Translations under genes and position numbers: made by a program
From: a virus
Lineage: Duplodnaviria; Caudoviricetes
Strand: one strand, 5' to 3'
Virus record (IMG/VR): IMGVR_UViG_3300034524_000079
Coordinates: 1 to 56,853 of that record
DNA: 56,853 nt
Notes under the pieces: generated by a model
Databases searched by the model: none
Seen by the model: the letters and a program-made list of their open reading frames with translations, nothing else
Told to the model about the DNA's origin: nothing
Shown: piece by piece, positions 2,295 through 51,989 of the stretch
How the letters are laid out: each line of letters opens with the position of its first letter
Position numbering within the stretch: position 1 is the first letter of the stretch

Positions 2295-4273
2295 AAATAC
2301 TGAGCCTTACCTTGAAAAACTTCAAAGGGATTAAGAGCTTTACCTTGGACACCAGGGGCGGAAATACTAGCGTCTATGGAGACAATGCTACAGGCAAGAC
2401 CACCCTGGCTGATGCACTGTATTGGCTCCTTTTCGATAAAGATAGCCAAAACCGCAAAGACTTTGATATAAAGACTATCACTCCCGACGGCCAGGTAGTT
2501 CACGGCCTGGAACATTCTGTTGAAGGCATTTTCGACATTGACGGTCAGAAACTCACCTTAAAGAAAGTATTTACTGAAAAATGGACCAAGAAGCGCGGTA
2601 GCGCTGAAAAGCAGTTTACTGGACACACCACCGACCACTATATTGACGGGGTGCCAGTTAAGAAAAAAGAATACACGGACCGCGTTTCTGAAATCGCTGA
2701 CGAAAGTATTTTCAAGCTACTCACATCACCCACCTACTTCAACACCCAACTCCACTGGCAGGAACGCCGCAATATTCTCCTTCAAGTTTGCGGCGATGTC
2801 AGCGACCAGGAAGTGATTGAATCAGATAAAGACCTTGCTAAGCTACCTGACATTTTACAGGGCCGCAAGCTGGAAGATCACCGCAAGGTTATAGCTGCCA
2901 GGCGCAGCGAGATCAACAAGGAGCTGGAGCGGATCCCGGTCCGTATCGATGAGGTCACACAGGGGCTGCCGGAGCTGCCGGCCGGCACCAAAACCGCCTA
3001 TGAGAACGAACTGAACATCTTGACCGAGCTGAAGAGCGGCAAGGAGCGGGAAAAGCTCCGCATTGAATCCGGCGGAGAAATCGCCGAGAAGCGCAAGGCC
3101 CTGGCCGAACTGGACGCGGAGCTGCAGGAGTTAAAGAACGGCCTACGTGCGGACATTGACGCGGGGATGGAGACTGAACGCAGCAAGATCCGGCAATACA
3201 GTAAAGAAGCCGACAATCTGAAATCTGAGATTGAGTTTCGGCAAGAATCCATAAACGGCAAGCGGAGGATGATCGAGGCTCGCAAGGCGGAAATGGACAG
3301 ACTGCGGACAGAATGGGAAACCGAAAATGCCCGCCAGTTTGAATATTCCGCGGAAGATACATGCCCGACGTGCGGCCAGACCCTGCCGGCGGAGCAGATC
3401 GAAGCTGCCCGGCAAAAAGCCCTTGAGCAATTTAATACTGCAAAAGCCGAGAAGCTGCAACGGATAAGCCATGAAGGCAAGACTCTTAAGGCCCGCGTCG
3501 AAGAGCTTGAAGCCGAGATCGCCGAAACCGAGGCAGAGATCGCGCGGCTGGAAAAAGATCTGGCCGACGCCGAAGCTGACAAGGCCGCTGCCCAGGCCCG
3601 GCTTGTAAAGCTCGAAGAACAACTCACCGCAATCGAGCAGAATGAGGAATACCAGCGGAAGCTCAAAGAGCGCCAGGCCCTAGCCGATGCCATTGCCGCC
3701 CTGGAGGCTGATAGTGGCCCCGCGCTGGAAGCCGCCCGGGCGGAGCTTGCCGAAATCGAAGAGAGGATCTCCTCCGCCCGGCTGCAGCTGCAGAAATTCG
3801 ATGACCACGCCCGCGGCCAGGCCCGCATCGAGGAACTCAAAGCACGGGAGCGCGAGCTGGCCGCAGAATTCGAATCGCTGGAGGAGGAGCTCTACTTAAC
3901 GGAGCAGTTTATTCGCTGCAAGGTCAAGCTCCTGGAGGATAAGATTAATTCCCGCTTTGAGTATGCCCGCTTTAAGCTCTTCGAGATCCAGGTCAACGGC
4001 GGAATATCTGAGTGCTGCGAGACCACCTACAAAGGCGTGCCCTACGGCAGCAGCCTCAATAATGCTGCCAGGATAAATGTCGGGCTCGACATCATAAACA
4101 CCCTGTCTGATTTTTATAACTTCTACCCGCCGATTTTCATCGACAACCGTGAGGCAGTCACCCAATTGATTGACACCCGGGCCCAGGTTATCAGCCTGGT
4201 AGTTAGCGAGCCTGACAAAGAGCTCAGAGTGGAGTACGAGAGCGACCAAATATCTCAAAGGGAGGCATCTTAA
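2291..4273 (+). CDS. Rad50/SbcC-like ABC ATPase with coiled coil (phage recombination)
   Basis: Walker A GDNATGKT, long coiled coil with central CPTCG zinc hook, C-terminal PIFIDNRE Walker B. Confidence 0.85.
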   Translation: MKILSLTLKNFKGIKSFTLDTRGGNTSVYGDNATGKTTLADALYWLLFDKDSQNRKDFDIKTITPDGQVVHGLEHSVEGIFDIDGQKLTLKKVFTEKWTKKRGSAEKQFTGHTTDHYIDGVPVKKKEYTDRVSEIADESIFKLLTSPTYFNTQLHWQERRNILLQVCGDVSDQEVIESDKDLAKLPDILQGRKLEDHRKVIAARRSEINKELERIPVRIDEVTQGLPELPAGTKTAYENELNILTELKSGKEREKLRIESGGEIAEKRKALAELDAELQELKNGLRADIDAGMETERSKIRQYSKEADNLKSEIEFRQESINGKRRMIEARKAEMDRLRTEWETENARQFEYSAEDTCPTCGQTLPAEQIEAARQKALEQFNTAKAEKLQRISHEGKTLKARVEELEAEIAETEAEIARLEKDLADAEADKAAAQARLVKLEEQLTAIEQNEEYQRKLKERQALADAIAALEADSGPALEAARAELAEIEERISSARLQLQKFDDHARGQARIEELKARERELAAEFESLEEELYLTEQFIRCKVKLLEDKINSRFEYARFKLFEIQVNGGISECCETTYKGVPYGSSLNNAARINVGLDIINTLSDFYNFYPPIFIDNREAVTQLIDTRAQVISLVVSEPDKELRVEYESDQISQREAS

Positions 4274-4274
4274 A

Positions 4275-5123
4275 TTGAGTAACAAGCCAGCAAACGCTGT
4301 TGCGCCTATGAACAAACTCAAAGCCCTTTTGAATGTCGATAGTGTCCAGGCGCAGTTTCAAAACGCGCTGAAGGAAAATGCCGGTGCTTTTATCGCTTCA
4401 ATTATTGACCTTTATGGGTCTGACCAATATTTACAGAAATGTGATCCCAACGCTGTAATCATGGAAGCGCTGAAAGCGGCCACCTTAAAGCTGCCCATCA
4501 ACAAGCAACTTGGATTTGCTTACATCGTTCCTTACAAAAAAAATGGCAAACCTATCCCTCAGTTTCAGCTTGGTTATAAGGGGTACATTCAGCTTGCAAT
4601 GAGAACCGGGCAATATAAATTCCTGAACGCCGGTACTGTTCCCGAAGGTATGGAAGTAGAGCGCGACATACTGACCGGACAAATAAAGTTCACTGGTGAG
4701 CCTACAGGCAATAATGTTCGAGGGTATTTTGCCCACATGGAGCTCCTCAACGGGTTTTCAAAAACGGTGTATATGAGCAAAGAGGAAGTAGTCGCCCATG
4801 CAAAGCGGTATAGTGCCAGCTACAACTCAAGTTCATCGGCCTGGAAAACTAACTTTGACGAAATGGCAATGAAGACAGTTACCAGAAGGCTTCTTTCCAA
4901 ATACGGTATTCTTTCCACCGATATGATATCTGCCCTTACGTCAGACCAGGACGATATTGAAAATCAGGTGGATGAAGAGATTGCCAACGAGGCAAATAAG
5001 GAAGCCATAGACGTGGAATATAACGCTTCCGATGAAGAAGGAGAAGCGCCGCAAGATGGCGGTATGGATGATGGGTACTATCAGGCCACAGGTACCGATG
5101 GTCCCACGGACCCGGGATTCTAA
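4275..5123 (+). CDS. recT: RecT-family single-strand annealing recombinase
   Basis: LGFAYIVPY, QFQLGYKGYIQLAMRTG and W...FDEMAMKT motifs; acidic tail. Confidence 0.9.
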   Translation: MSNKPANAVAPMNKLKALLNVDSVQAQFQNALKENAGAFIASIIDLYGSDQYLQKCDPNAVIMEALKAATLKLPINKQLGFAYIVPYKKNGKPIPQFQLGYKGYIQLAMRTGQYKFLNAGTVPEGMEVERDILTGQIKFTGEPTGNNVRGYFAHMELLNGFSKTVYMSKEEVVAHAKRYSASYNSSSSAWKTNFDEMAMKTVTRRLLSKYGILSTDMISALTSDQDDIENQVDEEIANEANKEAIDVEYNASDEEGEAPQDGGMDDGYYQATGTDGPTDPGF

Positions 5124-8589: not shown

Positions 8590-8759
8590 GAGAGCCATAT
8601 ATTATTCGGGCCGAGCTTGAACTTGAGCGGGACAGGCTCATCCAGATGTTTTCTGAGCGGGGAGAAATCGACGACGAAATACTGGCGCAGTCCCAGCTGG
8701 TTGATATGCTGCACATGGAGCTAGTGAGGGCGGAGAGGGCGTTGGCCCGTGCGAGCTAA
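8586..8759 (+). CDS. Spo0E-like aspartyl-phosphate phosphatase family protein
   Basis: Hand-translated, 57 aa: ...ELERDRLIQMFSERGEIDDEILAQSQLVDML... resembles the Spo0E SQELD signature; GGAGG RBS. Confidence 0.55.
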   Translation: MREPYIIRAELELERDRLIQMFSERGEIDDEILAQSQLVDMLHMELVRAERALARAS

Positions 8760-10272
8760 CGAGTTAACTTTCGGAGTTCTTCACCTTTTCGCCGGTATCG
8801 GCGGGGCGGCTTTGGGGATGCAGGAAGCTACCACTGAGTACCGGGGTGTGAACGGGAACTTCGTCACTCTGGCAGGCATTGATTGTGACCTGGAGGCCTG
8901 TGACGATTTCGAGAAGCTGACCGGGGCCCCGGCGGTGAACATGGACCTGTTCTCCCGGGAGGATTACACGGCATTCCACGGCGAGGAGCCGCCGCAGGGG
9001 TGGCGGGAGGCTGTTCCGGGCGATATACGGGAAGCAACGCAGGGCATTTACCCGGACGCTATATTTCTTTCGCCGCCCTGTAAGGGCTTTTCGGGGCTGC
9101 TGCCCACCAAGAGCGCAAAGAGCGACAAGTACCAGGCTCTGAACAGGCTAACTGTGCGCGGGCTGTGGCTGTCCCTGGAGGCTTTCCGGGACAACCCGCC
9201 CGGGATAATCCTCCTGGAGAACGTGCCGCGCATTACTACCCGGGGCGCGGAGCTGCTGCGGCAGATAAAGGCGCTGCTTGCCGGATACGGGTACGTGTTT
9301 CATGAGGGAAGTCACGACTGCGGGGAGATAGGCGGCCTGGGCCAGCACCGGAGACGGTACCTGTTAATAGCCAGGTTACCGGATAAAATACCCAACTTTG
9401 TTTATAAGCCACCGGAGCTAAGGGTAAAGTCAATTGGTGAGATTGTCGGGCCGTTACCATTGCCGGACAATCAAAACGCAGGGCCTATGCACAGGATGCC
9501 AAGGCTCCAGTGGAAAACTTGGGTGCGGTTGGCGCTCATTCCTGCTGGCGGTGATTGGCGGGATTTAGAGAAGATAGCGCCGGAGCAATATTGCCTGCAG
9601 CATATACCGCGGAAATCTACCCTTGGCGTAAGCCCGTGGGATAAGCCCGGTCCAACCGTGATAGGACATGCCAGAGTTGGCGGCAGTCAAGCATCGGCAA
9701 TATCAGACCCAAGGCTTTCAGAAAGAGATAACCGTCACCCGGGAGTTTACCGGGTAGTAAGGTTTAATGAACCAGGCCCATGCGTTACAGGTACACGGTT
9801 CGGGTCCGGAGCTCCGGCCATAGCTGACCCAAGACTAGGTTGCAAATGCAGAAACGGTCTTTATGGCGTTCTGGACTGGGATAAGCCAAGCTGCACTGTT
9901 ACCGGGGCCCGGAACCTTCACAGCGGAACCGCGGCGGTGGCAGATCCACGGGTACCAAAAGATACTGAGCAGGGCGTGTGGATCATAATAGCCGAGGATG
10001 GGGCATGGCACAGGCCGCTGACGACATTAGAGCTTGCGGCACTACAAGGGTTTCCTACGGTGATGGATGATGGTTCGCCGTTAGTGCTGACCGGGAAATC
10101 GGATGCACGATGGCGAGAAAGGATCGGGAATGCGGTACCGCCGCCGGCGGCAAAGGCGATTGGGGAGCAGGTATTAAGGACGCTTTTACTGAGTGCATGT
10201 GATGGCTGGGAGTTAAGCGCAACACCTATATGGGTGGTGCCGGAGTTGCCAGCTGAGGCGGTGAAGCAATGA
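8749..10272 (+). CDS. C5 DNA cytosine methyltransferase
   Basis: Motif I LFAGIGG, catalytic SPPCKGFS, ENV, QHRRR and motif X IGNAV. Confidence 0.92.
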   Translation: MRANELTFGVLHLFAGIGGAALGMQEATTEYRGVNGNFVTLAGIDCDLEACDDFEKLTGAPAVNMDLFSREDYTAFHGEEPPQGWREAVPGDIREATQGIYPDAIFLSPPCKGFSGLLPTKSAKSDKYQALNRLTVRGLWLSLEAFRDNPPGIILLENVPRITTRGAELLRQIKALLAGYGYVFHEGSHDCGEIGGLGQHRRRYLLIARLPDKIPNFVYKPPELRVKSIGEIVGPLPLPDNQNAGPMHRMPRLQWKTWVRLALIPAGGDWRDLEKIAPEQYCLQHIPRKSTLGVSPWDKPGPTVIGHARVGGSQASAISDPRLSERDNRHPGVYRVVRFNEPGPCVTGTRFGSGAPAIADPRLGCKCRNGLYGVLDWDKPSCTVTGARNLHSGTAAVADPRVPKDTEQGVWIIIAEDGAWHRPLTTLELAALQGFPTVMDDGSPLVLTGKSDARWRERIGNAVPPPAAKAIGEQVLRTLLLSACDGWELSATPIWVVPELPAEAVKQ

Positions 10273-11366
10273 GCGCAATAACAGGACCGGTTTTGAAATA
10301 CCCTGGTAGTAAGTGGCGCATGGCGAATTGGATAATTAACCATATGCCTCCGCATTCCACATACTTGGAACCCTTTGCCGGTTCCCTGGCGGTCTTCTTT
10401 AATAAAACACCGTGCACCGTGGAAACAATTAACGACTTAGACGGTAATATTATCAATTTTTTCAAAGTGCTAAGGGAAAGGCCGCAGGAACTGGCGGAGC
10501 TGGTCAGCTTTACACCCTGGTCCCGGAAGGAATATGAAAGCCTTTTAACCACAGCCAGTGACCCGGATTACTTTGTTAGAACCGGGGATGAGTTGGAAGA
10601 TGCCAGGCGATTATTGATTCGTATGTGGATGGGTAGGGGCAGTAAAACAAGTGACCGGTCAAGCTGGAGGCATAATATACAGGCACCGGGGAGTACCACT
10701 TCAAGGCAGTGGAAGTATTTACCCAGGAACCTGCTACTGGCTGCCGAGAGGCTAAAGGATGCACAAATTGAGTGCCAGCCGGCAGTTAAGCTGATTAAGC
10801 GTTACAAGTTTCCGGACGTGTTGATATATGCAGACCCGCCTTACCCGCTAGTAACCAGGTCGAAACGAATTTACAAGCACGAAATGGACGATAGCGACCA
10901 TCTGGAACTATTGGATACACTGGATGAACACCCGGGCCCGGTATTACTTAGCGGTTACGTTTGCCAGTTATATGATGAGCGGCTGCATCACTGGGAGAGA
11001 AAAACCGCCCAGGCATGGGCCGAGGGCGGAGCACAAAGAGAAGAAGTGTTATGGCTTAATCCGGTGGCCGCCCGGGAGATTGGGAAGAATTCGTTATTCT
11101 GGGGGGATGATGCCGTGAGGACGGTTGATGTTATATACGAAAATTTACGCCGGGAGCAGGATATGCTTATTCAGATGGACAGGCGGGATCCGAATACTTA
11201 CCAACAATCGTGCGTAGTGGATAAGCTTATAAATGAGTATTATGCGGCTTTGAAGCGGGAGGGGCACAGCTTTTGCGGTGGCCCGGAGGAATGCTATGAG
11301 AGGCAGAGGGAACGGCATGAGATGATGAGCAAAAAGCTGGATGAGTATTTAAACACTACCATTTAA
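10269..11366 (+). CDS. D12-class DNA adenine methyltransferase with an in-frame C-terminal Spo0E-like extension
   Basis: KYPGSK, EPFAGS, DPPY and EVLWLN motifs; extension begins at GTG 11115. Confidence 0.88.
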   Translation: MSAITGPVLKYPGSKWRMANWIINHMPPHSTYLEPFAGSLAVFFNKTPCTVETINDLDGNIINFFKVLRERPQELAELVSFTPWSRKEYESLLTTASDPDYFVRTGDELEDARRLLIRMWMGRGSKTSDRSSWRHNIQAPGSTTSRQWKYLPRNLLLAAERLKDAQIECQPAVKLIKRYKFPDVLIYADPPYPLVTRSKRIYKHEMDDSDHLELLDTLDEHPGPVLLSGYVCQLYDERLHHWERKTAQAWAEGGAQREEVLWLNPVAAREIGKNSLFWGDDAVRTVDVIYENLRREQDMLIQMDRRDPNTYQQSCVVDKLINEYYAALKREGHSFCGGPEECYERQRERHEMMSKKLDEYLNTTI

Positions 11367-11381: not shown

Positions 11382-12350
11382 GTGAGTAAAACTACACAGG
11401 CCGATATACCACAAAAAATAGATATGGATGATGGATATTTCCCCCTGGCCCAAACGGCCCTTTTAACACTCTCCAAGACTAAGTTATCAGGGGCCCAGCG
11501 GGCTATTATAGACGTTGTATTTACACAGACCTATGGATATTACAACGAGACAAGCCAGTACCAGGACAAGGCCAAGAAGCGTTTTACCAGGGCACAGATT
11601 TCCTATGACTTCTTTATGCAGCACACCTGGATGGGGAAGCAGGAAGTAAGCAGGGCAGTTAATCAGCTGGTAAAGTGGGGTATTCTTGGCCGAGATAAAA
11701 ACACAACACCATATACATATTGGTTCGTAGTACATACAGACAAGTGGGCCCCGGAGTGTTGGAGAGTTAGCAGGATAGCTAACAGTAAGCAGGATAGCGA
11801 ACAGTCAACAGGACAGCTAACAAAGAGTTCGCAGGATAGCGAACAAGGTGTTAGCAGGATAGCTAACAGTTCGCAAGTCTCAGCCCAGGATTCCCAAGGC
11901 TCGGCGGGGTCCCTAAATAAAAGTATAAATAAAAGAGAAATAAAAGATCATGTTGTTGATGATAATAACGCGCGTGCGCGCGAAGCAAACAATATACCAC
12001 TCACCTTACAGCAAGAATTTGGCAGGCCGGTTAGCTCATCCGAAATCGAGATACTTAACCACTATGCTAACCAGGGAATGCAGGAACCAGTTATTTGTGA
12101 GGCCGTGAAACGTGCTAAATTACACGGTTCCCCAAAGGTGTCATACGTTGAGGGCATTTTAAAGAACTGGCTTGCCGAAGGTGTTTACGACATGGCAGGC
12201 GTTGAACGTGTTGACCGCGAGTTTGAGGCTAAAAAGAACAAAAAGGGGGTAAAGATACGTGGACCCGATAACGCAAGCACTGGAAAGCATGAGGCAAAGC
12301 CAAAAAAATCGAAGTACGAGGGACTTGTCCCAAAGGTCGGAGGCGGTTGA
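11382..12350 (+). CDS. Replication initiator (lambda O-like N-terminus, DnaD-like C-terminus)
   Basis: VFTQTYGY winged-helix region, YVEGILKNW DnaD motif, internal iterons; lies upstream of a DnaC-like gene. Confidence 0.85.
   Translation: MSKTTQADIPQKIDMDDGYFPLAQTALLTLSKTKLSGAQRAIIDVVFTQTYGYYNETSQYQDKAKKRFTRAQISYDFFMQHTWMGKQEVSRAVNQLVKWGILGRDKNTTPYTYWFVVHTDKWAPECWRVSRIANSKQDSEQSTGQLTKSSQDSEQGVSRIANSSQVSAQDSQGSAGSLNKSINKREIKDHVVDDNNARAREANNIPLTLQQEFGRPVSSSEIEILNHYANQGMQEPVICEAVKRAKLHGSPKVSYVEGILKNWLAEGVYDMAGVERVDREFEAKKNKKGVKIRGPDNASTGKHEAKPKKSKYEGLVPKVGGG
11766..11947. repeat. Replication origin: five 18-bp iterons plus an AT-rich tract
   Basis: GTTMGCAGGATAGCKAAC-like copies at 11766, 11785, 11804, 11827 and 11850 (partial at 11869), followed by an A-rich tract at about 11914-11947. 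Confidence 0.8.
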
Positions 12351-13014
12351 GTGTCCTGAGTGCCAGGACAGGGAGTTTATCATCCGGGGAAATACTGCAA
12401 TCCCTTGCAAGTGCCGGGAAATGAAAACCATACGCAGGCTTATTAAGAGTTCTGGCATTACCGAGGAGCAGAGGAAAATTACGTTTGATAAGCTCGACCC
12501 AAAGCGCTCAAATAGCCAGATGTACTGGATGGCAAAGCAATACCTGGATGAATTTCACGACATAGCTGCCATGGATACCGAAGCCAAGGGAATAGGCTTT
12601 GCCGGCTCTGTGGGGACAGGTAAGACAACCCTGCTTATTGCCGTGGCTAACGGGTTGATTGTTCAACAAATACCGGTGCTTTTTGTTAACACCTCAGACC
12701 TGGTTGCTGAGCTCTACGATGCCCAGTGGGGCCGCGATGAGGAAACGCTGAACACTAAAATACACAAGGTCAGCACGGCAAAACTGGTTATCTTTGACGA
12801 TGTGGGCAAAGAGAAAATCACCGACTGGGTGAGGGCCCAGTATTATCGGATTATTAACCACCGGTACGCAAACAGGCTGCCTACCTGCTTTACAAGCAAT
12901 CTTAACTTTGACGAAATTGCAGACCAGGTAGGAGACGCAACTGCAAGCCGGTTGTATGCTTTGACTAAGGGTTGGCAGATACACATTGATGCCGAGGATT
13001 ACCGGCTGGTGTAG
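12259..13014 (+). CDS. DnaC/IstB-like helicase loader ATPase
   Basis: N-terminal CPEC...CKC, Walker A GSVGTGKT, Walker B LVIFDD, TSN, DYR. Confidence 0.88.
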   Translation: MDPITQALESMRQSQKNRSTRDLSQRSEAVECPECQDREFIIRGNTAIPCKCREMKTIRRLIKSSGITEEQRKITFDKLDPKRSNSQMYWMAKQYLDEFHDIAAMDTEAKGIGFAGSVGTGKTTLLIAVANGLIVQQIPVLFVNTSDLVAELYDAQWGRDEETLNTKIHKVSTAKLVIFDDVGKEKITDWVRAQYYRIINHRYANRLPTCFTSNLNFDEIADQVGDATASRLYALTKGWQIHIDAEDYRLV

Positions 13015-13579: not shown

Positions 13580-14017
13580 ATGATGGTCTACGAAAAACAG
13601 AGCAATATGGGCGTTTGGGATGAATACTCCCTTAGTTGTTCCGAGGCTGCCAAGCCATCATTCTACGAAGCACTTGAAAAGCTGGCCGCGCATGTCGTTG
13701 AGATGTGCGAACTGCCGGAGGAATACGAAGACAGGATCAAGGTGAAAGGCGTTTCCTTCAGCTACGGCGGCGAGAATGAGGTTATGGGGGCCACAATCAG
13801 CGCACAAATGGAGCTTGAAAACTCATACCAGAATCTTAACATCAACACCCCACATAAAGCCTCTGACATGTACGCTCCAAACGCTGAGCCGGATGAAATG
13901 CAGTTACTGACCAGTGACTGTATTGAGGACCTGGAAAAGCTGCAGGATGAATGTAGAGCCTATATCAAAGGCGACCGGGCGCAAGGTAGGTTGCAGTTTG
14001 AGGAGATGGCGTCCTGA
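13580..14017 (+). CDS. Hypothetical acidic protein (natural start may be 13537, out of frame at an A8 run)
   Basis: Long open frame; see the frameshift finding. Confidence 0.65.
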   Translation: MMVYEKQSNMGVWDEYSLSCSEAAKPSFYEALEKLAAHVVEMCELPEEYEDRIKVKGVSFSYGGENEVMGATISAQMELENSYQNLNINTPHKASDMYAPNAEPDEMQLLTSDCIEDLEKLQDECRAYIKGDRAQGRLQFEEMAS

Positions 14018-14077
14018 TCTACTGCGGCCAGTTAGGCCAGAAGAGTTGGTATCTTAAAATCCAGGGAGGCGGTACCT

Positions 14078-14869
14078 TTGAGCAAAACACAAAACACAAG
14101 CCTGCGCAAATCAAAGATGGGGTGCCGCCTGCCCCATGAAAGCCATGACGTGGGAGACGGGTATACTGCACCAAGCCCGGTGAAAAAATATCGACTTAGC
14201 CCGGAAGAGTTAGCTAAGTATGGCCCGATAAAGAAAGTTGAGCACCGCCGACAATTACTGACACGTGATGTACTGGTTGAAAAATTAAAAACACTGACCG
14301 TGGGTCAGGTGGCCCAGCGTCATAACATACCTGCGGTAATGGTTTTTAAGCTGGTTGAAAAGTATGGTTTGGAGCTGGACAAGAAAAACCGGTTGAAGGA
14401 GGGTGAAAGCATGGAAAATGTTGATAAATCTTTACGCAAAAATGAATTCGAGCCTTATGAGCCCAAGAAGACCCGCCTGGAAATCGCCCGGGAAAAGATT
14501 GACTTGGAGAAATATAAGAACCTAAAAGCGCAAGGGAAAACCGACAAGGATATGTATGAGGAGCTAGACATACCGGTGGATGTGTTTTACACACTCAAAA
14601 AAGAGTGGGGGATTGCTCAGACAATAGCCAAAAGTAAGCCTGATCCCAAAAACGATAAGGCTGCCGGTAAAAAGATGACGATCTCTAAGGCTATGGAGTT
14701 GCGAGAGGAATTGTGCGCTGATAGGTCTTGCATTGCGGATATTATGGATCCGGGAAAATTGGAAATATCACCAAAAGTGCGGGAACTGTTAAGTAATCAT
14801 TACGAAAAGTGCGGGGAGAGGTTGGAGCGGATCGACAAAGTTTTCGACTCCACGGAAATTGAGGTGTGA
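14078..14869 (+). CDS. Hypothetical protein with HTH-like segments (internal RBS and ATG at 14411)
   Basis: GGGAGG RBS; TVGQVAQRHNIP and TDKDMYEELDI HTH-like stretches. Confidence 0.6.
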   Translation: MSKTQNTSLRKSKMGCRLPHESHDVGDGYTAPSPVKKYRLSPEELAKYGPIKKVEHRRQLLTRDVLVEKLKTLTVGQVAQRHNIPAVMVFKLVEKYGLELDKKNRLKEGESMENVDKSLRKNEFEPYEPKKTRLEIAREKIDLEKYKNLKAQGKTDKDMYEELDIPVDVFYTLKKEWGIAQTIAKSKPDPKNDKAAGKKMTISKAMELREELCADRSCIADIMDPGKLEISPKVRELLSNHYEKCGERLERIDKVFDSTEIEV

Positions 14870-15138
14870 GTATGAACCTTAGCTTTAATTTTAACCCGGT
14901 GGATACCGTAGCGATTTACGCTGATGATCCGGAATACCAGATCGGCAAAAAGGCAGTTAAAGGCGATTATCGGCTTACTGAGCGGCAGGAGCAGGTAAAG
15001 AATATGTTTTTACACCTGGTTAGCGTGGTGCGGAGAAAAGAATTGCCGGTGAACATTGATCGGCTTCTGGACGCCACCAGGGATTATGTTCAAGAACGGA
15101 GGCTGGAGGAATATGAGTGGACTCGGAGGGTTGGCTAA
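14866..15138 (+). CDS. Hypothetical protein directly upstream of and overlapping the Tas-like gene
   Basis: Overlaps both neighbours, implying operon coupling. Confidence 0.6.
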   Translation: MSMNLSFNFNPVDTVAIYADDPEYQIGKKAVKGDYRLTERQEQVKNMFLHLVSVVRRKELPVNIDRLLDATRDYVQERRLEEYEWTRRVG

Positions 15139-15916
15139 GGTTTACCAGGATATCCAGGGGCTCAGAGTAGCCCTTGGAAACAAAACCTGGAGCGCGGAAA
15201 ATGCGGACGGCCGGGCAGTGCCGGCGATATATGAAACAATGATTGCCCAATTAAAAGAAATGGAAGCCGGCCTTGTTAAAGAGGCAAAACAGTACCTTAA
15301 AGAGCACCCAGCATGGATGGGATTTGGTAAAGACGTAAAGGGACTGGGCCCAACGCTGGGCGCTCAACTGATCGGGTACATCGAAGATATCGGGCGCTTT
15401 GATACCGTGAGTAAGCTCTGGAAATACTGCGGCCTGGCCTGTGTGGACGGAAAGGCCGACAGGATGAGGAAGGGGCAGAAGGCGAGCTATAATCCGAAGA
15501 TCAAGAGCCTGCTTTACAACATTGGGTGTAGCTTTATCAAGACCAAGAGTCCGTACCGGCGTATCTATGACGATAAAAAGCAATACTACCGGCAAGTAAA
15601 GCAGGACCCGCAGATCATGGCAGTAACCGGTGACAATGCCGGGATAATAAACAATATTCGACAGGATAAAAAAGAGTGGCCCAGGTATCTCGCGACCGCC
15701 ATCAAGGAAGCCAAAAAGCAAGGAAAACAAAAACCCTGGACGGACAATCACGTTCACATGGCAGCCCTCAGGAAGATGGAAAAGATATTCCTTGCCCACC
15801 TCTGGGAGCAGTGGAGAATTGCCGAGGGTTTGCCAACCAGGCGGGAGTACGTGTTTGATTGCCTCGGACATACAAGTAGGTACGAAGCCAAAGATTTTAA
15901 AAAGCAAGCCAGTTAG
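15113..15916 (+). CDS. tasA: TasA-like RNA-binding protein (IS110 C-terminal/Nop-like domain, no nuclease domain)
   Basis: GGAGGA RBS; coiled coil, then VKGLGPTLGAQLI...RFDTVSKLWKYCGL and H.HMAALRKMEKIFL. No N-terminal DEDD RuvC domain and no IS110 catalytic SG motif. A dual-repeat array follows directly. Confidence 0.78.
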   Translation: MSGLGGLAKVYQDIQGLRVALGNKTWSAENADGRAVPAIYETMIAQLKEMEAGLVKEAKQYLKEHPAWMGFGKDVKGLGPTLGAQLIGYIEDIGRFDTVSKLWKYCGLACVDGKADRMRKGQKASYNPKIKSLLYNIGCSFIKTKSPYRRIYDDKKQYYRQVKQDPQIMAVTGDNAGIINNIRQDKKEWPRYLATAIKEAKKQGKQKPWTDNHVHMAALRKMEKIFLAHLWEQWRIAEGLPTRREYVFDCLGHTSRYEAKDFKKQAS

Positions 15917-16343
15917 CCTTTAAAGATATGAGGACTTCTGTAAAATGCGAGCCTTACACGCCCTGAGGCCCACCTATCTTTGCGAGCCTTCGAAAAAATG
16001 AAACCTGAACAGTATTGCGAGCTGGAATTCAGATGATACCCTTCGGACCATGCGAGCTTATGGATATTTGAGGACTATATTAGTGTGCGAGCTGTGGATA
16101 CTTGTAAACTAAGTCTCTAATGCGAGCCGGAAATAAAACTTGAAATCGATACTACTTGCGAGCCCGGGTAAAAATAAGTATTGGATGCTTGTGCGAGCTT
16201 GGCAATATTTTTGATACAATAACAAACTGCGAGCTACCGTATTAGTGAGAACTTGGGAAGGCTGCGAGCTGCTGTGATTTCGAGATCTTATCATGAATGC
16301 GAGCCTAACTTCAATCGATGTGAATGTAAGAAATGTGCGAGAC
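15911..16343 (+). repeat. TIGR-like dual-repeat guide-RNA array (~12 units, ~35-nt period)
   Basis: TGCGAGC at 15946, 15981, 16016, 16051, 16086, 16121, 16157, 16192, 16228, 16263 and 16298; degenerate copies at 15911 and 16336. A second mid-unit TGANNNC-like repeat lies between unique ~10-nt segments. Confidence 0.85.
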
Positions 16344-16605
16344 CCGGCCACACAAACCACGAAAGGAGGATGCTCCGACGGAAGACGTATAAACGCTGTT
16401 CATGAGCTGGCCGGGTTTTATTTCTAATTACCCAAAATACTTGAAGGGAGGTGTCACCGCCTTCCTTCTCTCCCGATTTTTTGATTGGCGGAGGTTGGGC
16501 TTTATATCCTCCCGGTGAACCTTGTTACAAAGTGAAAATTAGGCCATACCGGAAGAGAAATATTTACGTTGTGCCACTAAAAGATATCATATCTATGACC
16601 GTGGG

Positions 16606-40900: not shown

Positions 40901-40913
40901 GGAGGTGTAAAGA

Positions 40914-41537
40914 TTGCCAGAACAAACACCTAAACTTGGCATCAAAAAGCCACTGGGAAATGAAACAGTATCCCGGGCGGCTTTTAATGAAAATTACGAT
41001 ATTATCGACCAAAATGCCGCTGCCCAGGCTGACCTTGATGCGCATTTGGCCGATACTGCGCCACACTCTGCAACCTCGTCGCCAACAGCAAACCGATTGG
41101 TTTTGCGCGATTCAAGTGGTAGGGCACAATTTGTTTCGGCCATGGTTGAATATTCCCCTGCCAGTGTAGATACCCCAGGAAATGAATACCCTGTCGGTAT
41201 ATCATACTCTAATGTCAGTATCAGTAGTGGTTGGCCTTTTGGTGGCACGCTTCAAACAATCCACATTAGTAATATCCGTATAATGCAAATATTAATGGAA
41301 CACGGCAACAGTACGATTGGAACGGGTGCGCCTAGAGTGTACTTCAGAGCGTGGCACTACGAACGTGGTAATTGGGCTAATTGGAGACAAATAAACCTCG
41401 AACAAGGAACGGGCAGTCCTGAAGGAGTGCTCACAGCTAACGTAGGCACAATCTACCAGAGGCTTGATGGTGGTGCAGGTACGACATTGTACGTCAAAGA
41501 ATCCGGTACCGGAAATACAGGGTGGGTGGCAAAATGA
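40914..41537 (+). CDS. Tail fibre/receptor-binding protein
   Basis: TPKLG...P...E....FNENYDIID anchor; knob-like YFR......W.NW; terminal GSPEGV.TA..G..Y....GG....LYVK.SG.GNTGW. Confidence 0.75.
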   Translation: MPEQTPKLGIKKPLGNETVSRAAFNENYDIIDQNAAAQADLDAHLADTAPHSATSSPTANRLVLRDSSGRAQFVSAMVEYSPASVDTPGNEYPVGISYSNVSISSGWPFGGTLQTIHISNIRIMQILMEHGNSTIGTGAPRVYFRAWHYERGNWANWRQINLEQGTGSPEGVLTANVGTIYQRLDGGAGTTLYVKESGTGNTGWVAK

Positions 41538-46183: not shown

Positions 46184-47360
46184 ATCTTTTTTTCTTTCGT
46201 TTAATCTCGTTTATTAAGCTTAAATTAAGTACGTTTTCTTCTCTGCTTAACATCTTTTCTGGTAGAAACAATAAGGAGGTAATTTCATCCTTGTTCATTG
46301 AAAATTGATCCAATAGCTCATCAACCGAAAATATAGAGTTATCAATTAAAAGTTCTAATGCTTGTTTGAAAAGATATGGTTGTTCAAACTTAATAACATT
46401 ATCCAAAGGTTCTCTTTTTTTGTAACCTTTTTTATTGATTTGCATAAATAAATATCTGGTTTGGTTTTCGGTAAGCAGTTGAAGGTTTCTGCAACGCATA
46501 ATCATGGCTTGAATAGATACTTTCCACCGTTTTTTTAACATAATAAAATGGTCAATTGAAACAGATGTTATATCACTGGAAAAGGAATCATAAGGCAAAA
46601 GAAAAGCACCAGCAAAGTACATTGCTTCCTCTTCAACTCTATCAAAAACCTCTTTTTTGGATAATTCGGACTGATCAATATTAGGATGCAAAATTAAGTG
46701 ACCAAGTTCGTGAGCCAAATCAAACCTAGCTCTTACAGCAGAATCGAATCCAGTACCGTATACGATATATGGGACGTTGTGGTACCATTGAGAGAAAGCA
46801 TCAACTTTTTTGTTTTTTATGCCAATATTACAAATAACAAAGCCTTTTTCTTGTAGTAGACTTACCATGTTAGGAATGGGGGCTTTACCAAGATCCCAGT
46901 GTTCTCTTAAGCGCTCAGCTACTTCTTCAATTATCGAGTAGTCTAAATCATCTGTTATTAAATCACTAAAGTCAGGCAAATCAACCTTTGGAAAATCAAT
47001 ATATTTACTTAAAAATTGATAAAATTCATCTGTCCACTTTATGCGATATTTATATGATTCCTTGTCTTTTTTCGTAGCACTTTTCATGCTGCGAAAATAT
47101 ACTGCACTATTTGAATAATCTTCGTTTATATTATTTTGGGGCTTTTTGAAAAACCTAACTGGGAAATCAAGCACTTCGGACATCTTCATCAAGACAGCTG
47201 GGCTAGGTTTTGATAAACCCAATTCGTATTGAGATATTGCTTGGCTAGATACGCCGACAAGTTCAGATAACCCTTTTAATGAATAACCCCTTGCTAATCT
47301 AGCCTCTTTTATTCTTGATGGAATAATATGTACTTGATCTTTATTGAAATGGCTTTTCAT
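46182..47360 (-). CDS. XRE HTH fused to ImmA/IrrE (M78) metallopeptidase
   Basis: N-terminal HTH (VGVSSQAISQYELG); RFDLAHELGH (HExxH) and E.EA..FAGAFLLP motifs. Confidence 0.9.
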   Translation of the reverse strand: MKSHFNKDQVHIIPSRIKEARLARGYSLKGLSELVGVSSQAISQYELGLSKPSPAVLMKMSEVLDFPVRFFKKPQNNINEDYSNSAVYFRSMKSATKKDKESYKYRIKWTDEFYQFLSKYIDFPKVDLPDFSDLITDDLDYSIIEEVAERLREHWDLGKAPIPNMVSLLQEKGFVICNIGIKNKKVDAFSQWYHNVPYIVYGTGFDSAVRARFDLAHELGHLILHPNIDQSELSKKEVFDRVEEEAMYFAGAFLLPYDSFSSDITSVSIDHFIMLKKRWKVSIQAMIMRCRNLQLLTENQTRYLFMQINKKGYKKREPLDNVIKFEQPYLFKQALELLIDNSIFSVDELLDQFSMNKDEITSLLFLPEKMLSREENVLNLSLINEIKRKKKR

Positions 47361-47375
47361 AAATACCCCTTCCCT

Positions 47376-48047
47376 CTAAGCATCTCTAAATTTAACCTTT
47401 GCCAATATCTCCTCTTTGAGAGCGGTAATTTTCTTTTCTTTTTCAGCAACATCGATTATTTCTTTTTCTGGCTCATAGAATGCGTATTCAGATTTAAGGT
47501 CAATATTTTTTAAAACAGAGTTCATTTTTTGGTCAGGGACAATCAAATTCACTGTTTCTAATTGGTCAGATACTACTTCGTATGTAAGAAAACAACAGTA
47601 TGGTTCATTATTTAAAAAAAGTCTATTCTTATGGTTAACGTCAAAGAATAAATTAATACTCTTAAAATCATTCTGAGCGCATTTCTTTAGGCGATGAAAA
47701 GATTTGTTGGGGAGTCCGTTGGGTTGTCGAGCACGACTAATGTTTATAATCACATTGCCTGATTTCAGAATACCGTTCTTGTAACCAAAATTATTAACTT
47801 TTTCCGCGTAGTAATAAAAAGGAAAGTTTGGGCTCACCATATCTGGCTCAAAGTGTCTGCATACAATATAGCTCAATAAATGCCCCTTTGTGTTTTTAAA
47901 AAATTCCGATTGGAACAAGGAATCATGTTCAAGTAAAAAGTCATTAAAAAAGTTAAAAGCGTCATTTATTACAGGATAAAGGCGTGCCCTTTTCCCAATA
48001 GGAAGTTCCTGATCAATAAGCTCGTCTGGAGTTTGGTATATCCTCAA
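47376..48047 (-). CDS. Hypothetical protein co-transcribed with the HTH-M78 gene
   Basis: AT-rich ORF 15 bp upstream of the HTH-M78 gene; AAAGGGG RBS. Confidence 0.7.
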   Translation of the reverse strand: MRIYQTPDELIDQELPIGKRARLYPVINDAFNFFNDFLLEHDSLFQSEFFKNTKGHLLSYIVCRHFEPDMVSPNFPFYYYAEKVNNFGYKNGILKSGNVIINISRARQPNGLPNKSFHRLKKCAQNDFKSINLFFDVNHKNRLFLNNEPYCCFLTYEVVSDQLETVNLIVPDQKMNSVLKNIDLKSEYAFYEPEKEIIDVAEKEKKITALKEEILAKVKFRDA

Positions 48048-48277: not shown

Positions 48278-48994
48278 CTAAAGGTGGCGGTAAATATCCT
48301 TACGGACCTGCTCCAGCGTCACAACCTTAAACCGAAGCTTCTCTTTGTTACACTTTTTTATCGTTTCGCTCACAACCTCTGGACGATCCGTGAGCACGAC
48401 CACCTTCGGGAACCGGTATTTCCCTTCTTCATTTTTCTTAGCCCACCATTGCTGGGTCCATGCTTTACTCAAAAAGTACGACGAGTATAACTTCACTTTA
48501 TCAAACTGGTTATTGCTATCGGCCCGGTCTACCTCCACAAAGTAAGGCTGTAGCACTTCCTTTGCCGTATTCTTCAGCACCAGCAACGCATCACTGACCA
48601 GCCTATTCTTCTCTCCCCACTCCTGAAAGTATTCGCGCACGAACGCCTGGATCTTAAACCAGCTTTTCCGCTGGGTGACCAGTGACACATAAACCCAGTT
48701 CACCAGCACCGCATGCTCCATCTTTTGATTACGCCTTCCAGTAAAGTATGCATACTGTTCATCCAGACCGGTCCTTGCCCGTTTCAGCTTCTTATCCTTA
48801 TATAATTTGGTTAACCTCTGCACTGCCTTCGCCGGTGTCTTGTGGTCAGCAAAAAACAATGCGTGAATCTGGTCCCGGGTGTAAGGTCCGGATTCAGAAA
48901 TCAGCTGCACGATTTTCTTATCCCGCTCCATGCCCAGGCGAACAAAGTCACGCGGGTCTGGTTTTACCTTCTCCTGCGCTATCACCATTTCCAT
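48278..48994 (-). CDS. Replication-relaxation family protein (wHTH plus PD-(D/E)XK-like)
   Basis: RD..I...I......TRDQI..LFF, H...V, SDAL, FVEVDR, K...Y and FPKV motifs. Confidence 0.75.
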   Translation of the reverse strand: MEMVIAQEKVKPDPRDFVRLGMERDKKIVQLISESGPYTRDQIHALFFADHKTPAKAVQRLTKLYKDKKLKRARTGLDEQYAYFTGRRNQKMEHAVLVNWVYVSLVTQRKSWFKIQAFVREYFQEWGEKNRLVSDALLVLKNTAKEVLQPYFVEVDRADSNNQFDKVKLYSSYFLSKAWTQQWWAKKNEEGKYRFPKVVVLTDRPEVVSETIKKCNKEKLRFKVVTLEQVRKDIYRHL

Positions 48995-49197
48995 CCCCTT
49001 TCTAAGTCCTCAAATATGGAGTAACAGGCCGGCTCTTTGCCCAAGTCCAAACTGCTGCACTGCGGATTTTTGCCCTGAATCAAATACCTTTCCTCTCTTA
49101 TCGCCTCCGACCGGTCATGCCTCACTTTATTGCCTAGGGACTGGCCCAGGTGCTTCGCCCCAAGTTTTGCCATCCGGTTTAAGATTCCCATAATCAA
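48982..49197 (-). CDS. Small hypothetical protein
   Basis: AGGAGG RBS; overlaps the next start. Confidence 0.5.
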   Translation of the reverse strand: MIMGILNRMAKLGAKHLGQSLGNKVRHDRSEAIREERYLIQGKNPQCSSLDLGKEPACYSIFEDLERGWKW

Positions 49198-49351
49198 CCT
49201 CCTAACTAGCGAATGAGATTTTTGCGCTGCGCTCTTACTTCTATCCCGTCATTTCCCTATAGTTTCGTTTCCCTCATCCTTATTATTACTCGCCTTAGGG
49301 TTCAAAAACGTATGCTGTTATAACGGGGTTTAAAACGTATCAACGAACGTA

Positions 49352-50485
49352 TTAAGGGCAAATCTCGATGTCCTCCGGGACGGGATCCGGCTCCCACGTG
49401 GACAACTCGGTGGCCGTGGCAGGGATTTTGGACAAGGTTTTCTGCACCCCTTCAGGTGCCTTCAAAAACATAGTCTGCACTTCCCGGGACTTGTTCCCAA
49501 ATCGGTATATTGCCCTCCCTGGAACCGTGGGCAAGTAAGCAGCCTGCGGACCATCCAGGATGATTTCACTATTTTTGCGGTCAGCCGTCCGGAAAGAAAT
49601 TCGCGCCGTAAATAAGGCCCTGGTATCCCCGTCGATGACCTTCGTGCTAGGCCTCTGGGTGGCGGCCACAATACTGATACCCAGGGCCCGGGCCAATCTA
49701 ACCAACCGGTCTAAAATATCCCAAGCCTTTTCATCCCGAAGCTCCGCAATTTCATCGATGACCACCACGATATACGGTAGCTGCTCCCCTTCCCAGTCCT
49801 GCACCTTCACCACTCTGTTTTCCAGGAGCTCCATTCTCCGATCCATTTCTTCCTCAACCTGCTTAAGCACCTGAAGCGCTCCCTGCTCAGTGTGAACGCA
49901 AGTGGCGTGATTCCGGTACCACGCAAACTCCAACCGCTTCAAGTCAATGATATACACCACCACATTAGCCCGGAGAAGGGTGCAAATAGCTTGGTGCAGC
50001 CAATTACTTTTGCCGGCACCGGAACCACCACCCAGGAGCAAGTGTGGGGCGTCGGCTAGGTCCAACATGATGAGCCCTTCCCGACCGTAACCCACCGGCA
50101 CCGGCTGGAGCATATTGTTGACCTCAACAAAATGGTATCGGTAAAAGTTTTTTATCTGCCCGGTGAACACCCGGAGAAGCAATGTACCGTGCCGCGGTTC
50201 AATCTCCACCTCACCTCCAAGTGACCAGGCGAGGGAATGTTTTTTGGCCCGGAAATGGAGATCCGAAAGGCCGTTTGGTAGGTGTAAGAGTAGGCTAAAA
50301 CCGTAACTTTCTTTTTGCTCCTGGAGCACTATAGGGTATAGTAGTTGCCCGGACTGCGCTTTGACATAAAGTTTGTGATTATGCCAGATGTCCCGAAGTC
50401 CATGCGCTGCGCCGGTGGTTTTTAGCTTCCGCTTTTCCTTTGCCCGCTTATCCATGTACTTTAAAACCTCCGCCAAGCTACTCAT
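49352..50485 (-). CDS. FtsK/SpoIIIE-family ATPase
   Basis: PHLLLGGGSGAGKS, IDLK, VVIDEIAEL, ATQRPS and PGRAI motifs; GAGGTG RBS before ATG 50485. Confidence 0.9.
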   Translation of the reverse strand: MSSLAEVLKYMDKRAKEKRKLKTTGAAHGLRDIWHNHKLYVKAQSGQLLYPIVLQEQKESYGFSLLLHLPNGLSDLHFRAKKHSLAWSLGGEVEIEPRHGTLLLRVFTGQIKNFYRYHFVEVNNMLQPVPVGYGREGLIMLDLADAPHLLLGGGSGAGKSNWLHQAICTLLRANVVVYIIDLKRLEFAWYRNHATCVHTEQGALQVLKQVEEEMDRRMELLENRVVKVQDWEGEQLPYIVVVIDEIAELRDEKAWDILDRLVRLARALGISIVAATQRPSTKVIDGDTRALFTARISFRTADRKNSEIILDGPQAAYLPTVPGRAIYRFGNKSREVQTMFLKAPEGVQKTLSKIPATATELSTWEPDPVPEDIEICP

Positions 50486-50741
50486 TGCCCAACACCTCAA
50501 ATAAACGTATTGCGTCACTGAGCTGGCCGAAATCGTACCCGTCAATCATAAACCCGTTAATAATCTTGAGCCCCTGGAAGAACGCGAGCAGGATAATAAT
50601 TACCATCACTGCGCTGGCCGCTCCGGTGAAAAGTTTATCCAGCTCACCTTTGCCGAACATATGCAGAAAGATGGATACTACCATGACGATTACAGCGATT
50701 AGGAAGGCAACAGTAAACAGGATCAGGCCCACCTTAAGCAT
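50478..50741 (-). CDS. Small two-helix membrane protein
   Basis: Two hydrophobic segments; overlaps the FtsK start. Confidence 0.6.
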   Translation of the reverse strand: MLKVGLILFTVAFLIAVIVMVVSIFLHMFGKGELDKLFTGAASAVMVIIILLAFFQGLKIINGFMIDGYDFGQLSDAIRLFEVLGNE

Positions 50742-51103
50742 CTCACCATATCCCCTTTCTTTTGCTGCAGAACCAGATTTTAAGGAAGAGAAGTATTGCC
50801 ACAAAAAGAAAAGCCAACTTCAAGTCACTTCACCACCTTCAAATGATTTTGCTTTCGCCTGGTTTTCTTGCGTGCTTTAGGTTTGCTTTCCCCCCAGGCC
50901 CAGGGCATCCGCAAAAGTGGGTCCCAGCGCTGGACGGCTTTCTCGTAGGCATAAAGGCCTAGGAAGATGAGTAGCAGCCGGCCAAAGAAAACGGTTTCCA
51001 TGGGGTACCTCCTTTCTGGTTGTAATGTTCTCTACAACGTTTGTTTATGGATATTGCAACATGCCTGTCCATGATTCCATGAAAAGAAAACCTGCAGAGT
51101 TAA

Positions 51104-51481
51104 TTACTCACTCTGCAGGTAAAATAGATCTTCTACGGCCATGTTGAGAGCATGTGATATAAGTAGTGCCATCTCAACGGATGGCTTATATTTGCCGCTA
51201 ATCAAATGGCTTATGTATACCCGTTCAATGCCAGTTTCCTTTGCAACTTCAGATTGCGTTTTGTTAGCTACGTGGAAGGCATTTTTTAAATCATTTCTCA
51301 ATATTACATTATTTCTGTGTAGAGGCTTGCAACTTCGCAAGTAAGGCTTTAGTCCGTTTCTAATAATCCGCTCCATGAAAATACTTTCTGTTATTTCTGG
51401 CTCTATTCTTTTAAGTTTTTTAAAAGCCGCTTCCAGCGTCTCTTTTAGCCCTGGTTGTAACTCCACCTTGGAAAAGTCCAT
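51104..51481 (-). CDS. XRE-family HTH regulator
   Basis: C-terminal TQSEVAKETGIERVYISHLISGKYKPS...VEDLF. Confidence 0.82.
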   Translation of the reverse strand: MDFSKVELQPGLKETLEAAFKKLKRIEPEITESIFMERIIRNGLKPYLRSCKPLHRNNVILRNDLKNAFHVANKTQSEVAKETGIERVYISHLISGKYKPSVEMALLISHALNMAVEDLFYLQSE

Positions 51482-51890
51482 CCGAACACCACCTTCGTAA
51501 TGTATTCATTACATGCTTTGTGGAAATACTACGTGGCGGAGGTGGGGAAAATGCTATCTTTAATTCGGGATATAAATAACAATCCTGATTACGACCGGGA
51601 TGACTATGATGTGAATAAACTTGTGCAGGCTTTGGCTCAAACAAACAATGATAGAAATAAGTAACCCGGACCTGAGCCGGGTTTTTCTTTAGTTGTTGCA
51701 ATTAGGGTAAGTAAGTGGGATAATTAGTCCGGCAGGAATGAAAAAGCTGGTGCCCTTGGTGCCCAAATTGGTGCCCATGGTGCCGAAAATGCGGGTAAAA
51801 ATGGTGAGTAGGGTAAAAACGGAAAATGGCGAAAATGCAGAAATGACGGGCTGTTTAAGGTTTCTGCGGGGTTAATAAAATTGCTTACCC

Positions 51891-51940
51891 TCAGCTTCCC
51901 AAGCTGAGGGCTGAGGGTTCGATCCCCTTCACCCGCTCCA
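51891..51940 (+). other. attP core: 3' part of tRNA-Gly(CCC)
   Basis: TCAGC-TTCCCAA-GCTGA anticodon arm, GAGGG-TTCGATC-CCCTT T-arm and CACCCGC-T-CCA end; adjacent to the integrase stop. Confidence 0.88.
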
Positions 51941-51948
51941 ATAAAATC

Positions 51949-51989
51949 AAGGCCTCCGAGGACCTACTTGATCCTCCGGAGGCCTTTTT
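51949..51989. terminator. Hairpin terminator after the tRNA fragment
   Basis: AAGGCCTCCG...CGGAGGCCTT followed by a T-run. Confidence 0.65.

Follow-up and report, generated by a model that had tools for sequence, protein, structure and literature searches.

A highly probable dual-repeat TIGR-TasA locus with a 35-nucleotide array unit in a temperate tailed phage

Introduction

TIGR-Tas systems were first described in 2025 (PMC12045711), and a 2026 preprint, whose survey of 20,096 tas loci lists 6,685 arrays, presents TasA as an RNA-guided repressor (10.64898/2026.09.09.750476). In such systems the array transcript is processed into ~36-nt RNAs to which the Tas protein binds, and both spacers of each RNA direct the binding of double-stranded DNA. 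Here we report on a stretch of viral DNA of 56,853 nucleotides (nt), the IMG/VR record IMGVR_UViG_3300034524_000079 (Duplodnaviria; Caudoviricetes), which is referred to at its full length as the window. A preliminary description of the window, made from its letters without database searches, had pointed to a gene for a nuclease-less, IS110-like protein and to an adjoining array of about 12 guides. Our analysis indicates that this locus is, with high probability, a dual-repeat TIGR-TasA system in the early/replication gene block of a temperate tailed phage. It belongs to an already published kind of system and is not a new one.

The closest described counterpart is dual-repeat TIGR-TasA, represented by FpTasA from Flavonifractor plautii (PMC12045711). 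The window locus shares with it a Nop-type Tas protein that stands alone and has no nuclease, carriage by a phage, an array of ~5-15 units in which edge and loop repeats alternate and each unit has two short spacers, a truncated edge at the start of the array, and a truncated edge with a terminator at its end. According to the same report, box D (UG) starts and box C (CCA) ends both the edge and the loop, the two repeats covary, and the 36-nt unit holds 14-nt box C-spacer-box D intervals lying 4 nt apart. The window locus differs in its unit of 35 nt, in a box C that reads CY(N) instead of CCA, and in inner loop letters that are not conserved. Furthermore, an open reading frame (ORF) of ~90 amino acids overlaps its tasA start, whereas the companion named for the published loci is tasParB; no ParB-like gene was found when the window proteins were searched against the libraries.

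Two nuclease-bearing Tas proteins and a second type of TasA are also closely related. SpTasH from Salicola phage CGphi29 (PDB 9W03/9W04/21KL; PMC13421893) has the Nop domain, the coiled coil, a Tyr/His pair and a dual-repeat array in common with the window system, but it is a DNA-cutting protein with an HNH nuclease at its N-terminus, whereas the window TasA has no nuclease domain. TaTasR (PDB 9MTY), the best match in both sequence and fold, has the same coiled coil and Nop domain and uses a TIGR RNA (tigRNA) with UG and C-rich boxes; it differs by a RuvC domain of 118 residues. The TasA proteins of stem-loop systems (PlTasA and MbTasA; 2026 preprints) are likewise free of nuclease, and DNA binding and RNA-guided, reversible repression of transcription have been demonstrated for MbTasA, which is the activity that we infer for the window TasA. 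In contrast to the edge repeats of the window locus, stem-loop arrays have palindromic stems, and their proteins lack the loop that holds the Tyr/His dyad.

More distant relatives are the IS110/IS621 bridge-RNA recombinases and the archaeal and eukaryotic box C/D small nucleolar ribonucleoproteins (Nop5), with which the window system shares a Nop-type RNA-binding fold and a two-guide logic (PMC12045711). Compared with these, the window TasA is without a DEDD recombinase domain and without fibrillarin or L7 partners, and its guides would come from a multi-unit array instead of a bridge RNA or dispersed small nucleolar RNAs. Insertion sequences of the IS110 family encode an N-terminal DEDD domain and a C-terminal Transposase_20 domain, whereas the window protein has only the C-terminal one. 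CRISPR-Cas systems differ by repeats of 23-47 nt, spacers of similar size and cas genes; the window repeats are 8 nt long, and no cas gene was found.

A nuclease-free Tas protein

The locus consists of the following two features:

15113-15916, + strand: tasA, 267 amino acids, with an N-terminal coiled coil, an IS110-type helix-hairpin-helix module and a Nop-type C-terminal domain
15911-16343, + strand: TIGR array, 12 units (15911-16335) plus a terminal edge, beginning at the tasA stop codon

The tasA ATG is preceded, at a distance of 5 nt, by a GGAGG ribosome-binding site. A phmmer search of the product against the chains of the PDB revealed similarity with TasR (9mty_A, E 1.8e-27, query residues 9-160 on chain residues 119-264) and TasH (21kl_A, E 3.5e-14). 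The AlphaFold2 (AF2) model, calculated with 24 homologues, reached a predicted local distance difference test score (pLDDT) of 91.1 and a predicted template-modelling score (pTM) of 0.86. A Foldseek search using this model returned only TasR or TasH chains among its top ten matches (E 1e-11 to 1e-7), the best being 9mty_B with E 2.1e-11 and a root-mean-square deviation (rmsd) of 1.7 Å over 245 columns. The Tas identity put forward in the preliminary description was thus upheld by both the sequence search and the superposition of structures.

In Pfam, the sole match above the cut-off was PF02371 'Transposase IS116/IS110/IS902' (E 1.4e-8); the helix-hairpin-helix motif scored below the cut-off, and no DEDD/RuvC or HNH domain was found. 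The PHROGs label is also 'transposase'. Residue 9 of the window protein aligns to residue 119 of TasR, so that nothing in it corresponds to the RuvC domain of TasR and the protein is a TasA, as its earlier characterisation as nuclease-less had anticipated. The claimed lack of cas genes was confirmed as well: neither PHROGs (73 proteins, i.e., most of the 82 called ORFs with some alternative ORFs swapped in) nor PADLOC (52 proteins, from outside the virion-structure block) identified a cas or other CRISPR protein.

In SpTasH, Y289 and H296 are reported to be catalytic in pre-tigRNA maturation, which is metal-free (PMC13421893). These two residues fall on Y246 and H253 of the window TasA in a gap-free HMMER alignment. 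Both residues are invariant in all 24 homologues, as are 17 other columns, and each of the 24 is full-length and without a DEDD domain. We regard Y246/H253 as a putative pre-tigRNA processing dyad on the basis of this alignment. Dual-repeat systems reportedly conserve a Tyr/His dyad that stem-loop systems lack (10.64898/2026.09.09.750476). In dual-repeat Tas proteins, the dyad sits on the C-terminal loop of the Nop domain. TaTasR differs here, with a Trp aligned at the position of Y246, and it reportedly does not cut its own precursor (PMC12045711; 10.64898/2026.08.11.744272).

Anatomy of the adjoining array

The array and the structure that follows it can be divided as follows:

15911-15945, + strand: unit 0, with a 5'-degenerate edge AGTTAGCC that holds the tasA TAG stop codon (15914-15916), then spacer A, loop TGAGGACT and spacer B
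15946-16085, + strand: units 1-4, canonical, 35 nt each (edge 8, spacer A 10, loop 8, spacer B 9)
16086-16227, + strand: units 5-8, edges intact, interiors irregular
16228-16297, + strand: units 9-10, canonical, 35 nt each; the loop of unit 10 begins CG instead of UG
16298-16335, + strand: unit 11, irregular, 38 nt; this position varies among near-identical relatives
16336-16343, + strand: terminal edge TGCGAGAC, a 3'-altered repeat that closes the array
16339-16424, + strand: terminator-like structure, a GC-rich long-range stem CCCGGCCA / UGGCCGGG with a large internal loop, then UUUUAUUU

The successive periods are 35, 35, 35, 35, 35, 35, 36, 35, 36, 35, 35 and 38 nt when the variant TGCGAGA at 16336 and the degenerate first edge at 15911 are both counted as edges; 35 nt is modal (9 of the 12 units). 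This reproduces exactly the period list first given for an array of about 12 units running from the stop codon of the 267-residue ORF. Copies of the edge TGCGAGCY start at 15946, 15981, 16016, 16051, 16086, 16121, 16157, 16192, 16228, 16263 and 16298. The word TGCGAGC occurs 13 times on the two strands of the window, with 11 copies on the + strand between 15946 and 16304 (~360 nt) and only two elsewhere, at 3278 (-) and 8750 (+). In 100 dinucleotide-preserving shuffles of the window, the mean count was 5.33 (standard deviation 2.03, maximum 11), and none of the shuffles reached 13.

Column conservation, computed on the nine 35-nt units, revealed two repeats per unit. In the edge, columns 1-7 read TGCGAGC in 8-9 of the nine units, with the box D letters T in 8 and G in all nine, and the CY of box C is found in 9/9 (column 8 being C or T throughout). 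In the loop, columns 19-21 are T in 7/9, G in 7/9 and A in 9/9, column 25 is C in 7/9 and column 26 is C or T in 8/9. The remaining columns are variable. The consensus unit is accordingly UG-CGAG-CY (8 nt), 10 variable letters, UGA-NNN-CY (8 nt) and 9 variable letters; the variable parts become 9 + 8 if box C is counted as three letters, per the published systems. A dual-repeat array with two spacers per unit is therefore seen, as proposed, and the edge TGCGAGCY was read correctly at the outset, whereas a loop TGANNNC flanked by spacers of ~10 and ~10 letters has to be replaced by UGA-NNN-CY with 10 + 9 or 9 + 8. Because edge and loop carry the same CY variant, and box C is CT in both repeats of the related locus L002, the two repeats follow the published rule of covariation with letters other than the canonical CCA.

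The units differ in quality. Units 0-4 and 9 are canonical, and units 5 and 10 form a second group, the loop of unit 5 being shifted by 1 and that of unit 10 having CG for UG. Units 6, 7, 8 and 11 are irregular: units 6 and 8 have 36 nt, and the loop of unit 7 reads UA...UU. The terminator-like RNA folds with -33.1 kcal/mol (z = -3.2), and none of 200 shuffles folded as well. A search of the window against Rfam gave no match at or above the gathering score of any family.

Relatives of the locus

We collected 49 related tas loci, of which 33 are viral and 16 genomic, and searched beside each tas gene for an array chain, defined as at least four exact 6-mers spaced 30-44 nt apart. A chain was detected at 30 of the 49 loci, and at least 17 of these were on a CGAG-core edge word; the 19 chainless loci include some truncated where a contig ends and others whose arrays have drifted too far to share exact words, so that these blanks are not evidence of absence. 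The spacers were unrelated between the relatives' arrays that were compared. In other phages, arrays with the same edge core thus adjoin homologues of the window tasA, with different spacers in those compared, and the refuting condition named in the preliminary description, homologous genes in related phages without an adjacent array of variable spacers, was not borne out. Most of the 36-nt arrays inspected among the relatives read (U/A)GCGAGCCA, 9 nt, (U/A)GAAAACCA, 9 nt, in agreement with the UG and CCA boxes described for the published systems.

A maximum-likelihood tree calculated from 49 TasA rows placed the window together with L001, L002 and L093 (support 100/98). L001 and L002 have a period of ~35 nt and TGCGAGCT-type edges, as in the window. 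The closest relative, G015/L001, has an array of 19 edges with similarly loose loops. L093 has an array at 3430-4400 of perhaps ~25 units with a spacing of ~35 nt, both estimated by eye; its edges are degenerate and drifting (TGTGAGYY, TGCGAACC, AGTGAACC) and were missed by exact-word repeat finders. The sister clade (L010, L020 and L034) has 34-nt units with UGUGAACCA and UGAGAACCA repeats, and in the other rows with a detected chain the unit is modally 36 nt, with two rows at 37 nt. Unit length thus tracks the TasA phylogeny, and the 35-nt period is a trait of the clade. TIGRFinder accepts spacers of 8-10 nt, which places the 35-nt unit within the variation tolerated for the family. What had earlier been proposed as a variant subtype amounts to a variation in unit length and box C (35 nt, CY) at the level of this clade, and not to a different architecture.

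Three public runs (X1, X2 and X3) hold the stretch. X1 is probably the run from which the window derives, whereas the other two, X2 and X3, belong to a separate study of soil metagenomes. A 6.2-kb contig from X2 has 68 substitutions and 10 gaps over 14000-16304 and is ~97% identical across tasA and units 0-10; three of its units contain small indels, and the 37 letters of the window at 16304-16342 are replaced by 75. A contig from X3 has a different, well-formed unit after the edge at 16298. Comparison of X2 and X3 with the window shows that guides 0-10 are conserved at ~3% divergence, while the terminator-proximal position turns over. The locus is clean and complete within a 57-kb temperate-phage record, and with its soil relatives it could be a natural model for the targets and the role of TasA.

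A five-guide TIGR-TasA array was also observed at 3656-3870 of L035, from the cultured Chloroflexota bacterium Ornatilinea apprima, where a truncated edge is followed by a compact hairpin terminator and a U run. This strain is a tractable lysogen for TasA biology.

Searches for guide targets

By analogy with the 8-nt 3' overhangs published for the family, a target would be expected to consist of spacer A followed by the reverse complement of spacer B (PMC12045711). The same report places the cut both 3' of and 5' of the nucleotide paired to spacer base 5. Because of this inconsistency, both orders of the half-sites were run, each serving as the control of the other.

The window itself was searched with gaps of 0-2 and at most 3 mismatches of 18, using 12 cognate guides and 132 mis-paired controls. 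The cognate guides gave 4 matches in the inferred order and 6 in the opposite order, against 34 and 35 for the controls; nothing rose above the controls, and no match lay inside the array. The search was extended to 16 phage records with 126 guides and 1,190 mis-paired controls, with units other than 35-37 nt, or with edges missed by the pattern, dropped. In the inferred order, the cognate guides had 0 matches at up to 2 mismatches and 4 at up to 3 (controls, 2 and 36), and in the opposite order 2 and 4 (controls, 4 and 46). An earlier test on six records had given the same picture. The preliminary description had suggested looking in phage genomes for spacer A adjacent to the reverse complement of spacer B, and across the 16 records this pairing did not exceed the controls in either order. 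Since own-genome matches are no more frequent than those of mis-paired controls, the result speaks against simple self-regulation and directs attention outward, towards hosts or rival elements.

Wider searches gave a similar result. The window guides had 0 matches at up to 2 mismatches in 67 collected loci (479 kb), and exact scans of the viral collection with guides 1, 3 and 9 (19 nt, gap 0-2) and with the 17-nt cores of guides 1 and 9 found 0 matches in all five cases. Four of the five guides of the O. apprima prophage array, compared with its own 4.3-Mb genome in the inferred order at up to 2 mismatches, had 0, 0, 1 and 0 matches, and the single match, with 2 mismatches, is at about chance level. 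The published work likewise states that natural TIGR targets cannot yet be determined (PMC12045711; 10.64898/2026.09.09.750476).

One guide stood out. Guide 8 (the unit at 16192), searched as the reverse complement of spacer A followed by spacer B, has two window matches of 16/18, at 40910-40927 (+), which covers the TTG start of an ORF at 40914-41537, and at 46812-46829 (-), inside an RmrA-like regulator gene. The controls for this guide gave 2 matches in 264 mis-paired patterns, and of 500 shuffles two gave one match and none gave two, which makes a pair of matches from a single pattern unusual. They are the only cognate matches at up to 2 mismatches in the 16 records (2 from 126 guides, as compared with 4 from 1,190 controls). 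The guide 8 matches are probably due to chance, though unexplained; as a weaker thread, they could hint at self-regulation.

Assessment of the assignment

Several observations weigh against the assignment of the locus to the dual-repeat TIGR-TasA systems, or against its function as such. Box C reads CY and not the published CCA. Loops or lengths are irregular in 4 of the 12 units (6, 7, 8 and 11), and some guides may therefore be non-functional. The structure after the array is no textbook short hairpin, and a simple terminator scan, restricted to loops of 3-8, did not report it. None of the listed public runs that hold this DNA is recorded as RNA. Finally, the searches of the window, of 15 related phage records, of the viral collection and of one cultured lysogen revealed no natural target for any guide.

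The irregular units and the fruitless target searches are also what would be expected if the locus were decaying or domesticated, with the protein and the edges persisting while many guides are non-functional and no targeting role is left at present. We consider this improbable. The tasA frame is intact, with its dyad and the 17 further columns kept in all 24 homologues, and units 0-10 are retained in the ~97% identical relative from another study. Moreover, the loose loops are common to the 19-edge array of the closest relative, and in the TasR structure the inner loop letters have no base-specific contacts (PMC12045711).

A second explanation is that the repeats are protein-binding iterons of a replication origin or a partition site, and that the ORF encodes an IS110-derived DNA-binding protein recognising the DNA itself. 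Iterons are typically tandem short repeats with helical-scale spacing, the locus lies just downstream of the replication genes (DnaD/DnaC-like, 11382-13011), and both Pfam and PHROGs call the protein a 'transposase'. However, a separate iteron-like cluster of five GCAGGATAGC(T/G)AAC copies is already present at 11765-11875, in the DnaD-like initiator gene. In addition, two UG...CY boxes per unit with variable letters of fixed length correspond to the layout of a tigRNA, the nearest solved relatives of the protein bind exactly such RNAs, and the RNA-processing dyad is conserved. We therefore judge the iteron explanation to be very unlikely. That the gene is an IS110-family remnant, a transposase minus its DEDD domain next to unrelated or bridge-RNA-derived repeats, is hardly credible: PF02371 and the presence of IS621 and ISCro4 among the fold matches speak for it, but these recombinases rank only after the Tas chains (E ~1e-2, rmsd 6.7-8.6 Å), the 24 homologues are all full-length without that domain, and bridge RNAs are described as single two-loop units and not regular arrays (PMC12045711).

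For a dual-repeat TIGR-TasA system, processing, dimerisation, dual-strand pairing and repression can be proposed by analogy with the published family. The tasA gene and the array would be transcribed together from the + strand. TasA would bind the precursor RNA, which would be cut inside each TGCGAGCY edge, most likely by Tyr246/His253, into ~12 tigRNAs of ~35 nt with the layout box C(CY)-spacer A-box D(UG)...loop...box C(CY)-spacer B-box D(UG). The outcome would be DNA binding that blocks transcription or replication, and not cleavage, because TasA is without a nuclease domain. Its proposed role is the repression of genes of the host or of rival elements.

A small reading frame upstream of tasA

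The ORF that precedes tasA, and its relatives in the same clade, are located as follows:

14872-15138, + strand: small ORF (P0026/P0028), 88 amino acids from the ATG at 14872 or 90 from the GTG at 14866
L001 1974-2234, L002 2727-3020 and L093 2197-2463: relatives of the small ORF that overlap or abut the tasA start

In the window the small ORF overlaps the tasA start by 26 nt in a different frame. Its relatives directly upstream of tasA are 48% (L001) and 34% (L002) identical to it, with 34-50% identity among the three aligned. A hidden Markov model (HMM) of the three small ORFs matched 2 of the 49 related loci (L001 and L002) and L093 (E 2.9e-23). A small helical ORF of 86-97 amino acids is therefore found in all four members of the window clade and in 0 of 47 other tas loci. 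No match was found in Pfam, PHROG, PADLOC or PDB, a word search found only the ORF itself, and a protein atlas search with P0026 returned nothing (best score 0.78). Its AF2 model is poor (pLDDT 54) and too weak for the fold to be classified. With no PDB or Pfam match and a fold that cannot be classified, the small ORF shows no nuclease-like match.

We consider the small ORF a candidate clade-specific companion of tasA. Three features mark this well-supported clade: a unit of 35 nt, a box C with CY where CCA is usual, and the conserved ORF of ~90 amino acids overlapping the tasA start. Whether the window, L001, L002 and L093 also form a distinct TIGR-TasA subtype, in which a translationally coupled helical protein of ~90 amino acids works with ~35-nt CY-boxed guides, seems doubtful to us. 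In such a subtype the small protein could be an effector or a loading partner, as is suspected for tasParB in other TasA operons. Together with the clades of 34-nt and 35-nt units, this upstream ORF adds modestly to what is catalogued.

Other genes of the phage

As annotated by PHROGs, the early part of the window contains recombination genes, two DNA methyltransferases and the DnaD/DnaC-like loaders, followed by tasA and a RusA-like resolvase. Terminase, portal, protease, capsid, sheath, tape measure, baseplate and lysis genes, repressor-like regulators and an integrase come later. The closest relative of the capsid protein, 57% identical, is in a Thermoanaerobacteraceae metagenome-assembled genome, and the terminase gene has ~66% DNA identity to Paenibacillus phages.

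The adjacent DNA methyltransferase genes (cytosine-type; type II-like) lie at 8749-11366, upstream of the replication genes. Within the latter, the five repeats at 11765-11875 inside the DnaD-like initiator gene are followed by an A-rich run; they are probably the replication origin of the phage, with iterons within the initiator gene. At 46185-48047 (-), a gene pair matches PADLOC RmrA (E 2.9e-138; a helix-turn-helix and metallopeptidase-type regulator) and RmrT (E 5.6e-16). Situated beside the lysis genes, this pair is a candidate defence or toxin-antitoxin-like module. Finally, a Rep-like gene, an FtsK/SpoIIIE-like gene and a tyrosine integrase adjoining tRNA-Gly (51866-51940) were found at 48281-53259; this right-hand part of the record could represent either another small integrative element or the module by which the prophage itself integrates at the tRNA site.

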